Shown here in pieces: positions 35,858 through 38,233 of a stretch of DNA of 64,000 nt. Both the position numbers and the translations under genes were made by a program. This DNA comes from Naegleria gruberi (Eukaryota), in assembly GCA_000004985.1 (NCBI GenBank), contig GG738930.1; one strand, given 5' to 3'. Under the pieces are notes generated by a model, which saw nothing but the letters and a program-made list of their open reading frames with translations, had not been told where the DNA came from and searched no databases. Numbering within the stretch: the first letter of the stretch is position 1; each line of letters begins with the position of its first letter.

Positions 35858-38233
35858 ATGAAAATTAAACCACTCACAACAGAAGACCAATCGTCAAATC
35901 AGCAGCAAGAAACTGAAAAGCTCATCCAATCCAAGAAGAAACCAAGACCTTTCCTTCTAGGAATCTTTCTTTCGGTTAGATTATTCTTAATCATTGTCAT
36001 TACACTTCTCGTGATTGCAACAGCTCTTTCCATTTGGATTGCAGCTTATAAAGTCAATGAACAAGCAGCCTTGGAAGCAGTCTCAGGAATCATGACTAAT
36101 ATCAATGATAAAGTTCGCCAATTTTTAGATGGTCAACTGGTGCCACTTCAAGTAGTTTCTCAACAATTAAGAGATGATTATCAAAATGGATATATCGACA
36201 CAGCAGATGGATATCTTAGATATTTCTATTCCAAACTCAAGCAGAATAACATTACCATTGTAACTTTGTGTTTGGGTGAGAATGGAGCGGACACATTGTA
36301 TGGTTACACTGGAGAAGATGGAATTATTTCAACACTCAGAAAGAGACAAGGTGATAAATATCTGTTAAAGTTGGCAACTGACGAGAATGGTGATCCAACT
36401 TCCAAGATTCAGCTCAATATTACCTATGTTGTGCCGAAGAGAGATTTTTATTTGGAATCAGCTCAGTTTTTTACAAATGGTTATCCAGATGGAGGATTTG
36501 GTACAGTGAATCAGATTCCATCTGGTCATATGACTATTTATTATGCCTCTCAAGTATTTGCTAGAAATTCAACTTCCAAAATTGGAATTGCCAAGATTAA
36601 TTTGACATTTCAACAAATTGCTCAATTTTTCGCAGGAATTAAGGTTTTGGAAAATGGATATAGTATATTGTCAGAGTATGGAAATGATATGATTATTGGT
36701 TGTTCTCTTCCTATTCCTAATATTGAAAAAACTCGTATTAAGGCACAAAACATTACTATTCGAAACGCAGGAAAAGTATTCACCAAAATGTTGCAAGCAA
36801 ACACTGAAATTTCATACATCCAGGAAGGATCTGAAAATCTCATTGTTTCCACCACATCCTACACTTTTAAAAACCTTAAATGGCGTCTCACTTTAGTTTT
36901 CGACGAAAATGAAATCAAAAAGGGAATTATCACAAGTTCTTATGTGATTGCTGGAGTTACAATTGGTGTGATTTGCATTGGTGTGGTTCTGAGTGTTGTC
37001 ATTGGTTGGATAGTTACCAATCCATTCATTCAATTACAAAAAGATTTCAAAAAGATTGAAGTTTTGGATTTGACGAATATCAAACCAAGAAATTCGATAT
37101 TTACCGAATCTAAGAGTATTTATTCTAGTTTGACAGATACAGTGAATTGGTTGGCAGAGTTTAGGGCATTTCTTCCTGATTGCGTTTTGAATCAGTTGGA
37201 GCAAAATCAGGAAAATCAAGCTGAGGAATCGGCTACTAATCCAAACGAATCTCACCGAAAGGCCCAAGAATCGTCTAGCTCCATTGCTTCAAAAGCTGGT
37301 TCAGGTTTGGATTCGTTCCGTCACGGATCAACATTCAGAAATCCTAAAGGTGGTGTTGCTGCCATGCTTAAATTGGGACTTTCGTCTAGACACAGTTGTG
37401 TTCTATATATGAGAATTCCAGCATTGAATAATGTCAATATTTCAGATGTTGAAATTCTAAACAGTACTGTGTGTAAAGTCATTACTGGAGTTTCGTCTAT
37501 TTGTAAGACGGTGAGAGGTGACTTGCAAATCAAAAGTCATAATGAATATTTAGTTGTCTTTTCAGATAAGAATTGTTCATTGACAGGATTGGAAACTTCT
37601 CTCAAGATTACTACAGCACTCAATTCGTTAAACGAAACTCTTATTCGAAATGGAGCTAGTCCTTTAAAGGCAAATATAGCAATTGCAAGTGGTGAATGTC
37701 TTCAAGGAAATGTTGGAAATAATTCTTTGAGATTCTTTACGCTTGTGGGTGAAATGATTTACAGAGCTAGGAATTTGTCAATCATGTGTGAAGATTATGG
37801 AGTTAGTGTAATTGTAGATCAGGAAACACATGATGAAAACAAGGATTCGTTTGTGTATCGTCCTGTGGATCGTTATCTTGGAGGCGATCGTTCCATTTCA
37901 ACAGTTTATGAGCTCATTAAGAAGAATCAGATAAATGCAGATGAATGGTTATACGAATTGGAACAACAAAAGGAAAATACCAAGTATGAGATTTACTCTC
38001 AACAATTTACCAAGTTATTTTCACAACCCAATTTGGAAACACACGACCTTTCGGCTATCAAGAAAGTTTTGGAGGAGAATCAAATTCCCAATGATAAATT
38101 AATGGAAAGATTGATTCGTATAATTGACAAATCATGTCTGAATAATCATAGAGACTTTGCTAATTATCACAGCCATTTGAAATCATCCATTGATACTTAT
38201 ATCGATCATAATATTCCTCTTCATTTAGAATAA
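35858..38233 (+). CDS. receptor-type membrane protein: N-terminal TM, extracellular sensor-like domain, second TM, cytoplasmic degenerate cyclase-homology domain
   Basis: ATG at 35858. Hydrophobic helices lie at residues about 33-58 and about 365-390. The C-terminal CVLYMRIP..LQIKSHNEYLVVFSD..LKANIAIASGECLQGNVGNNSLRFFTLVGEMIYRARNLS..VIVDQ aligns to the class III cyclase fold. Three core motifs appear substituted: the (F)xD(I)xGFT strand, the GDxY motif and the N.ASR motif. The gene at 60991..63515 is a paralogue. Confidence 0.6.
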   Translation: MKIKPLTTEDQSSNQQQETEKLIQSKKKPRPFLLGIFLSVRLFLIIVITLLVIATALSIWIAAYKVNEQAALEAVSGIMTNINDKVRQFLDGQLVPLQVVSQQLRDDYQNGYIDTADGYLRYFYSKLKQNNITIVTLCLGENGADTLYGYTGEDGIISTLRKRQGDKYLLKLATDENGDPTSKIQLNITYVVPKRDFYLESAQFFTNGYPDGGFGTVNQIPSGHMTIYYASQVFARNSTSKIGIAKINLTFQQIAQFFAGIKVLENGYSILSEYGNDMIIGCSLPIPNIEKTRIKAQNITIRNAGKVFTKMLQANTEISYIQEGSENLIVSTTSYTFKNLKWRLTLVFDENEIKKGIITSSYVIAGVTIGVICIGVVLSVVIGWIVTNPFIQLQKDFKKIEVLDLTNIKPRNSIFTESKSIYSSLTDTVNWLAEFRAFLPDCVLNQLEQNQENQAEESATNPNESHRKAQESSSSIASKAGSGLDSFRHGSTFRNPKGGVAAMLKLGLSSRHSCVLYMRIPALNNVNISDVEILNSTVCKVITGVSSICKTVRGDLQIKSHNEYLVVFSDKNCSLTGLETSLKITTALNSLNETLIRNGASPLKANIAIASGECLQGNVGNNSLRFFTLVGEMIYRARNLSIMCEDYGVSVIVDQETHDENKDSFVYRPVDRYLGGDRSISTVYELIKKNQINADEWLYELEQQKENTKYEIYSQQFTKLFSQPNLETHDLSAIKKVLEENQIPNDKLMERLIRIIDKSCLNNHRDFANYHSHLKSSIDTYIDHNIPLHLE

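Follow-up and report, generated by a model that had tools for sequence, protein, structure and literature searches.

Paralogous double-Cache receptors of Naegleria gruberi with a catalytically degenerate cyclase-homology domain: candidate pseudo-cyclase receptors

We analyzed a 64,000-nucleotide stretch of Naegleria gruberi nuclear DNA (assembly GCA_000004985.1, contig GG738930.1; hereafter the window) that carries two genes for candidate pseudo-cyclase receptors, membrane proteins whose cytoplasmic cyclase-homology domain (CHD) appears to have lost its catalytic residues. Copy 1 is a complete single-exon gene with an unbroken open reading frame (ORF) of 791 residues (Table 1), and its translation is identical to the database entry 'predicted protein [Naegleria gruberi]' (P0001). 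Copy 2 has the same architecture and is interrupted by an assembly gap, so that it reads as two ORFs (60991..62958 and 62946..63515); its frame break is an assembly artefact of the run of 50 N within the CHD. P0017, a close relative, is continuous across the gap point as '...DGHPRIKMCASVTSGSTIMGNVGSKQMRYF...' and fills the hidden residues with '...DGHPRIKMCASVTSGS...'. The joined copy 2 aligns with copy 1 end to end at 41% identity over ~800 residues (E = 0), by which measure the two genes, 22.8 kb apart on the same strand, are paralogs. An earlier sequence-only reading of the window had proposed just such a pair, ~23 kb apart, and the motifs on which it relied are all present (GYIDTADGY, NGYPDGGFGT / KYPNGAFGAP, CVLYMRIP, and LQIKSHNEYLVVFSD), with their correspondences to canonical cyclase motifs correctly drawn.

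Hydropathy places two transmembrane segments (TM1 and TM2) in copy 1 with ~295 residues between them, in agreement with the ~300-residue extracellular segment described earlier. Lys and Arg are biased around TM1 (5 in the preceding 15 residues, 1 in the following 16), which suggests that the N-terminus lies inside. The density of N-glycosylation sequons, at 1.7 per 100 residues in the ectodomain and the cytosolic part alike, adds no support for the topology; three sequons are conserved in the ectodomain.

Since Pfam returned nothing useful for the window proteins, whole or as cut domains, at E values up to 10, we demonstrated homology by way of a family profile. The dCache_1 model matched one of 16 members (E 0.002) and the relative P0083 (1.9e-6), both under the gathering score, and a PDB sequence search with the ectodomain/HAMP profile gave no match at E ≤ 10. 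An AlphaFold2 model of copy 1 residues 30–450, built from a 13-sequence alignment (predicted local distance difference test score, pLDDT, 79), contains in order a long helix out of TM1, two alpha/beta modules, a helix continuous with TM2, a connector, and a second helix. The modeled ectodomain has the dCache_1 layout, namely a long N-terminal helix and two PAS-like alpha/beta modules between the transmembrane segments, and the 50 best Foldseek matches to it all contain dCache and are either chemoreceptors or kinase sensor domains (prob 1.0). Alignment of the family profile by hhalign to the bacterial protein P0132, which Pfam reads as dCache_1, HAMP, and Guanylate_cyc, extends from TM1 through the dCache, TM2, and HAMP to the hinge (94.8%, E 5.4e-8, 377 columns). 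Model, structure search, and profile alignment all point to a double Cache fold for the ectodomain, which the sequence-only reading had left to fold prediction.

The same alignment places 'QRPWY' of the P0132 dCache on 'KRDFY' of copy 1 (family consensus KTDYY), and neither the copy nor the consensus has both the R and the W of the amino-acid-sensor 'RPWY' segment. The dCache_1 amino-acid sensor motif is said to be Y-R-W-Y-Y-D, with R and W binding the ligand carboxylate, as Gumerov et al. reportedly described in 2022.

Between TM2 and the CHD lie a HAMP domain and a hinge motif that the sequence-only reading did not mention. In the model the segment starts at TNPF and consists of a helix to residue 401, a 14-residue connector (402–415), and a helix over 416–438. 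This is the HAMP layout of a helix-connector-helix of ~50 residues directly after TM2 with a conserved Pro near its start, and hhalign shows the segment to be collinear with the Pfam-confirmed HAMP of P0132; the Pfam HAMP model (PF00672) gave no match to the isolated copy 1 segment at E ≤ 10. The sequence FLPDCVLNQL that follows is the counterpart of the bacterial 'YVPxxLVxQL' hinge, and a hinge proline in the helical (signal-transducer) domain of a cyclase has been described for Cya (PMC5699072). At the other end of the protein, the C-terminal tail resembles, by eye, the helical tail that bacterial relatives of class IIIb carry, and may be related to it.

The architecture had been thought unexplained by a standard cyclase, a view that does not survive these comparisons: the window proteins are collinear with bacterial dCache_1-HAMP-class IIIb cyclases (P0132, P0118, P0113, and P0105), and the bacterial relatives found with the CHD profile likewise carry dCache_1, HAMP, and Guanylate_cyc by Pfam. 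What is unusual is instead the loss of catalytic residues together with a low-complexity insert ahead of the CHD.

Class III cyclases bind two metal ions through two Asp residues (Asp1 and Asp2 below), as established in work associated with Tesmer, Sunahara, Linder, and Schultz; a Lys with an Asp or Thr selects ATP, a Glu with a Cys selects GTP, and an Asn and an Arg stabilize the transition state. The window CHD is strongly similar to the cyclase fold (the beta-alpha-beta-beta-alpha-beta palm) in profile alignments and structural matches, as the sequence-only reading had expected. We aligned 130 CHDs from a representative search with CyaB of P. aeruginosa (PDB 3r5g), the structural comparator for class IIIb, using MAFFT. 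At the Asp1, Lys, Asp2, Asn, and Arg columns the 38 bacterial representatives that are fully canonical have D-K-D-N-R, and P0001 has R-I-N-Y-N. The residue at Asp1 is R519 (copy 1) or T551 (copy 2). Ile558 occupies the substrate-Lys column of copy 1, with K559 one residue on; the corresponding lysine of copy 2 is K592 (column not mapped). At Asp2 stand N562, adjoined by an invariant E563, and in copy 2 N595, adjoined by E596. The bacterial group mostly also keeps the phosphate-binding Arg, the Thr, and the VKG Lys; in copy 1 the Arg column holds L624, with R625 one residue on, the VKG Lys is absent, and the second substrate-specifying (Thr/Asp) position is T628, a position that varies among T, V, E, A, C, and S across the family. 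Of the transition-state pair on helix alpha4 (NxxxR), copy 1 has Y635 for the Asn and N639 for the Arg; copy 2 keeps the Asn (VMNRAKEL) and has Glu for the Arg. When the family CHD profile is aligned by hhalign to the canonical cyclase encoded in the window, Asn again falls on Y635 and Arg on N639, an alignment of the C-terminal half only (prob 25.6%) that served solely as a consistency check on this pair.

The register of these assignments is shared by the hidden Markov model alignment to CyaB and the MAFFT alignment, and it fits the predicted strands, with beta1 ending at R519 and the hairpin turn at H561-N562. The alignment to OaPAC moves the hairpin by one residue, so that K559 falls on the Lys and E563 on Asp2. 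From these alignments the loss of Asp1 is certain, and the replacement at Asp2 is register-dependent, either D to N or D to E. The earlier claim that both metal-binding Asp residues are lost holds outright for Asp1, and for Asp2 takes one of two forms (N562/N595 or E563/E596); no Asp is aligned at either metal site against solved and canonical cyclases. In the Naegleria clade the hairpin between beta2 and beta3 has the pattern S-(Y/H/F)-(D/N/C)-E-(F/Y), and 'SYDEF' occurs in several members. The pattern resembles the GGDEF signature of diguanylate cyclases, which is the homologous hairpin of the palm superfamily.

The canonical cyclase gene 18 kb upstream of copy 1 serves as an internal control. 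It encodes a TmcB-type TPR N-terminus, PAS_9, and a Guanylate_cyc domain (PF00211, 7.8e-60) in which the motifs FFSDMVGFT, KTIGDAY, YDLWGDTINTASRME, and VKGKG are intact, which shows that Naegleria cyclases are not generally aberrant. By eye, its hydrophobic stretches are apparently several transmembrane segments.

A search of 1.84 billion representatives with the CHD profile found 15,362 proteins at E ≤ 1e-3, among them 35 at E ≤ 1e-30. From the top 150 we aligned 130, of which 76 bear the C-terminal signature (D/E)EW(L/M)YE(L/M). Catalytic residues are rare in these 76: 4 retain Asp1, 2 the Lys, 13 the Asn, and 3 the Arg. In the 72 that lack Asp1 its place is taken mostly by R (18), K (14), T (13), H (6), or Q (5), and a Glu directly follows the Asp2 column in 40/76. 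Motifs that do not vary are FKLGLS, ICKT, GNVGN, RPVDRY, and DEWLYE. Members whose source was looked up come from N. gruberi, N. lovaniensis, N. fowleri, Willaertia magna, Acrasis kona, Percolomonas cosmopolitus, and the euglenid Entosiphon sulcatum, all of which we take to be Discoba; those of Percolomonas (MMETSP) and Entosiphon derive from transcriptomes. Databases name the proteins 'Guanylate cyclase domain-containing protein', 'adenylate cyclase', or 'class 3 adenylate cyclase'.

A neighbor-joining tree, built without support values, collects all Asp1-less sequences in one clade. Its basal sister group (P0068, P0070 from Percolomonas, P0080, and P0106) retains both Asp1 and the GD-hairpin Asp and, except for P0080, the Asn; its Lys and Arg are already missing. 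Because this group still has both Asp residues but no Lys or Arg, the tree suggests stepwise decay following a single acquisition from bacteria. Horizontal transfer from bacteria was proposed by Upadhyay et al. 2016 for the single Cache-cyclase detected by them in Naegleria (PMC4822843). The unit of hinge, insert, degenerate CHD, and tail is also found behind teneurin-type EGF repeats (P0039) and behind ankyrin repeats with a dCache (P0083); given its occurrence behind these other sensor parts, it behaves as a portable output module.

The residue census bears on the possibility that the degenerate CHD is an obligate heterodimer subunit or a dominant-negative regulator, pairing with the CHD of a canonical Naegleria cyclase and either completing an asymmetric active site, as in mammalian C1/C2, soluble guanylyl cyclase alpha/beta, and NeoR/RGC, or inhibiting its partner through dead heterodimers. 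Class III cyclases act as dimers in a head-to-tail arrangement, and there are well-known heterodimers in which one site is degenerate. The CHD of NeoR, a subunit of fungal rhodopsin cyclases, is inactive as a homodimer and works only with its RGC partner (PMC10622942), and a pangenome study reported an exceptionally large Naegleria repertoire of at least 81 cyclases (PMC9928731), so that potential partners are many, one of them encoded 18 kb away in the window; the strong purifying selection on the CHD described below would also fit a conserved protein-protein interface. However, the subunits of heterodimeric cyclases each keep one half of the active site, whereas the window family has lost both (the two Asp; Lys/Asp(Thr)/Asn/Arg), so that only the inhibitory version survives, and within the window no active cyclase gene is adjacent to or paired with either copy. 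A complementing C2-like subunit, with Lys, Asn, and Arg not conserved, is ruled out, because neither half-site is retained. We consider inhibitory pairing with a canonical cyclase, the main alternative to the reading favored below, unlikely, if still a credible role for this family.

The second departure from bacterial class IIIb lies between the HAMP domain and the CHD. Measured from the hinge '(F/Y)(L/I/V)P' to the Asp1 column, the spacing is exactly 31 residues in 24 canonical bacterial representatives and ~29 in the canonical cyclase of the window, compared with 53–134 (median 81) in the tail-bearing family and 82 in copy 1. The extra sequence, an insert of 56–65 residues in the window proteins, is rich in S, N, Q, and E and poorly conserved. 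It lies just ahead of beta1, with the hinge helix on one side and 'FKLGLS', which corresponds to bacterial 'KLGGE', on the other. From this position the insert probably loosens the rigid helical coupling of HAMP to CHD. We treat this effect as suggestive because the linker here also varies in length among mammalian cyclases (PMC5699072). In sum, bacterial class IIIb enzymes combine the residues D, K, GD, R, T, N, R, and K with the fixed 31-residue spacing, whereas in the window proteins not one of these residues is in register, and the insert is present.

To ask whether the degenerate domain is maintained, we calculated the ratio of non-synonymous to synonymous substitution (dN/dS) by the Nei-Gojobori method for the N. 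lovaniensis (L001) and N. fowleri (L002) orthologs of the paralog P0006/P0007, which has His at Asp1 and an SYCEY hairpin and whose ortholog proteins are 87% identical. The CHD (191 codons) gave 0.084, the dCache ectodomain 0.089, HAMP plus hinge 0.024, the tail 0.13, and the insert 0.335; the whole-protein value is 0.08–0.10, and the insert alone is relaxed. Values of dS were around 0.6, ranging over ~0.5–0.8 for the larger regions, and exceeded 1 for HAMP and TM2, which are short. In this ortholog pair, then, the degenerate CHD is under purifying selection and is as constrained as the sensor domain, which indicates that these genes are not decaying. The N. fowleri model of P0007 (778 residues) does not translate from its locus L002:3001-5460 (VFQX01000043.1), where the DNA holds an unbroken 819-residue ORF collinear with the N. 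lovaniensis ortholog; on account of that uninterrupted ORF, the annotated 3' intron looks spurious.

These values bear directly on whether the genes are functionless relics of an expanded cyclase family. The catalytic residues are gone, the family is large and lineage-specific, and the window protein is too divergent for Pfam, all of which decay could explain. Yet long intact ORFs persist in N. gruberi, N. lovaniensis, N. fowleri, Willaertia, Acrasis, Percolomonas, and Entosiphon, whole-protein dN/dS is low with relaxation confined to the insert, motifs are invariant, and members were recovered from transcriptomes. We give decay hardly any credence and reject pseudogenes on the dN/dS of 0.08.

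Taken together, the missing in-register catalytic set, the retained cyclase fold, and the dCache ectodomain support the candidate pseudo-cyclase receptor that the sequence-only reading had proposed. We favor, with moderate confidence, a receptor whose CHD and DEWLYELE tail form a non-catalytic output module. We infer loss of cyclase activity from the aligned residues, because the two-metal mechanism of class III cyclases is established and the catalytic residues are gone. Both genes would encode type-II-like dimeric membrane receptors descended from bacterial dCache_1-HAMP-class IIIb adenylate cyclases. A small extracellular ligand would bind the double-Cache ectodomain, and the signal would pass TM2 into the HAMP domain and then the hinge. 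The cytoplasmic output would no longer be synthesis of cyclic AMP or cyclic GMP: the CHD has lost the beta1 metal Asp, the GD hairpin, the phosphate-loop Gly, the substrate-Lys register, and the Asn-Arg pair, and retains its fold and a family-specific conserved surface. As a most likely non-catalytic module it may, with the DEWLYELE tail, dimerize or scaffold, bind nucleotide without turnover, or sequester partners. A regulatory or dimerizing role of the CHD is likewise inferred, and the identity of the receptor output is speculative.

Several points weigh against a non-catalytic CHD. The dN/dS values come from the ortholog pair of a paralog and not from the window genes themselves, and the catalytic positions were assigned from sequence alignments together with the strand register of an AlphaFold2 model made from only 10 sequences. 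Polar residues near the former site are invariant (D555, K559, E563, and R625 in P0001 numbering), and one of the two profile alignments, that to OaPAC, restores a Lys and an acidic residue to the substrate-Lys and Asp2 columns. Moreover, migrated catalytic residues are documented in pseudokinases (PMC10211241). The CHD could accordingly still be an enzyme in which E563 and D555 are metal ligands, K559 and R625 act from shifted positions, and the R or K at Asp1 replaces a metal, making a cyclic or a different nucleotide; the hairpin SY(D/N)E(F/Y) is GGDEF-like. The invariant residues adjoin the canonical positions, Glu follows the Asp2 column in over half of the signature-bearing representatives, and the CHD is as constrained as the sensor, all in favor of such an enzyme, but the Asp1, Asn, and Arg columns are variable and no new conserved residue has appeared there. 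We judge a migrated active site improbable. More doubtful still is a relocated active or binding site, comprising SY(D/N)E(F/Y), D555, the shifted Lys and Arg, and the basic residue at Asp1, at which a nucleotide other than cyclic AMP or cyclic GMP is made or sensed; metal-independent nucleotide binding or a GGDEF-like reaction may serve as examples.

A non-catalytic output module would have parallels among known systems. Receptor proteins with degenerate GGDEF/EAL domains, such as LapD and FimX, have a HAMP-linked cyclase-fold domain that acts without catalysis, in binding or transmission, and their GGDEF domains are distant structural matches of the window CHD. The C1 and C2 domains of mammalian adenylyl cyclase, the alpha and beta subunits of soluble guanylyl cyclase, and NeoR/RGC likewise use a cyclase-fold domain that is inactive alone for regulation or dimerization. 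PDB 6yii, by its entry title a 'class III adenylyl cyclase-like ATP-binding protein' of P. aeruginosa, is a non-cyclizing precedent, and with NeoR (PMC10622942) makes two for cyclase-fold proteins that do not cyclize. Its context is that of a soluble bacterial transcription regulator, unlike a Cache-HAMP receptor, and it had no sequence-level match among the CHD profile alignments to solved cyclases.

The surroundings of the two genes are listed in Table 1. We rejected a functional link of the two copies with each other or with the upstream canonical cyclase, given the unrelated genes in between. Immediately downstream of P0006/P0007, in convergent orientation, is a gene for a guanylate-binding protein with GBP and GBP_C domains (L001:5466-8054 and L002:5457-7862); the convergent downstream neighbor of copy 1 (38237..40513, minus strand) instead encodes a BTB-domain protein, of which the end near copy 1 reads by eye like small-GTPase G4/G5 (TKCD, SSAY). 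The plus-strand ORF 26649..29195 encodes 848 residues, apparently multi-pass by eye, with a C-terminal RGS domain (PF00615, 7.8e-8), and probably belongs to the seven-transmembrane RGS class, which PMC9283941, to go by its title, reports for N. fowleri. Two large proteins encoded on the plus strand (42711..45872 and 48622..52356) are rich in cysteine/EGF repeats, and the EGF repeats of P0039 in the pseudo-cyclase family are similar to theirs. The second has a REJ domain (PF02010, 4.4e-42) and an apparent C-terminal transmembrane segment, features that suggest a surface receptor or adhesion protein. A 117-residue ORF on the minus strand (63621..63974) has a weak match to HamA (PF08878, E 1.5e-4) that scores 22 bits, below the cut-off of 25. 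As a component of Hachimoji anti-phage defence, HamA would be odd in a eukaryote; the match may be chance. Ten runs of N, gaps or masked sequence, lie in the window, several inside ORFs, where they produce long X-filled pseudo-ORFs.

Table 1. Positions of the two receptor genes, their parts, and other features of the window (aa, residues of the protein).
Feature	Position	Strand	Remark
Copy 1	35858..38233	+	complete gene
Copy 1 TM1	35951..36049	+	aa 32-64, hydropathy
Copy 1 ectodomain	36050..36934	+	aa 65-359, predicted double Cache (dCache) fold
Copy 1 TM2	36935..37015	+	aa 360-386, hydropathy
Copy 1 HAMP-type helix-connector-helix	37016..37171	+	aa 387-438, TNPF...WLAEFRAF
Copy 1 hinge motif	37172..37198	+	aa 439-447, LPDCVLNQL
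Copy 1 insert	37199..37366	+	aa 448-503, low-complexity, between hinge and CHD
Copy 1 CHD	37367..37939	+	aa 504-694, catalytically degenerate
Copy 1 hairpin	37541..37555		SHNEY
Copy 1 C-terminal tail	37940..38230	+	aa 695-791, signature DEWLYELE and helices
Copy 2	60991..63515	+	interrupted by gap
Copy 2 TM1	61108..61203	+	
Copy 2 TM2	62137..62217	+	
Copy 2 HAMP	62218..62373	+	
Copy 2 hinge	62374..62400	+	IPDSILNQL
Copy 2 insert	62401..62595	+	
Copy 2 CHD	62596..63182	+	
Copy 2 hairpin	62770..62784		SFNEF
Copy 2 tail signature	63183..63206	+	DEWLYELE
50-N assembly gap	62886..62935	.	within CHD of copy 2
Canonical cyclase gene	14546..18076	-	internal control
Protein kinase	2405..4709	-	split over two ORFs, probably by an intron
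Class-V aminotransferase-like protein	7029..9968	+	
F-box protein	9957..10823	-	
Chromodomain protein	10820..11713	-	
Mem_trans (auxin-efflux-carrier type) transporter	33489..35657	+	directly upstream of copy 1
Cytosolic HSP70	54773..56779	-	1.8e-262
N runs	7222..7473, 12975..14053, 18117..19306, 22736..23349, 33500..34191		
Further N runs	39634..40449, 42742..43505, 47892..48367, 62886..62935		

Part of this picture is already known, namely the genes themselves (auto-annotated), the bacterial-type architecture, and degenerate CHDs in principle. Upadhyay et al. 2016 placed a Cache domain in a single Naegleria protein with Pfam-type models (PMC4822843); their Cache plus bacterial-type adenylate cyclase shares organism and general architecture with the window proteins, which differ in having many paralogs and no Pfam match. 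Fold prediction and profile-profile alignment indicate that Pfam models miss many dCache receptors in Naegleria. Searching the literature for 'pseudo-cyclase' and its variants returned essentially nothing, and the searchable literature yielded no description of a large, selected, Discoba-wide dCache-HAMP clade without both active-site halves, of the insert in its transducer, or of numerous Pfam-invisible dCache receptors in Naegleria.

If the non-catalytic reading is true, this would be a clear eukaryotic receptor pseudoenzyme family, maintained by selection and built on the class III cyclase fold, and double-Cache receptors would be far commoner in Naegleria than the one reported case suggests (PMC4822843). 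If the whole clade cannot make cyclic nucleotides, then counts of Naegleria cyclases, and the weight given to cyclic AMP and cyclic GMP signaling in these organisms, would be overstated. The family includes members from the pathogen N. fowleri, and it is natural material for asking what role a cyclase domain plays when it does not catalyze.

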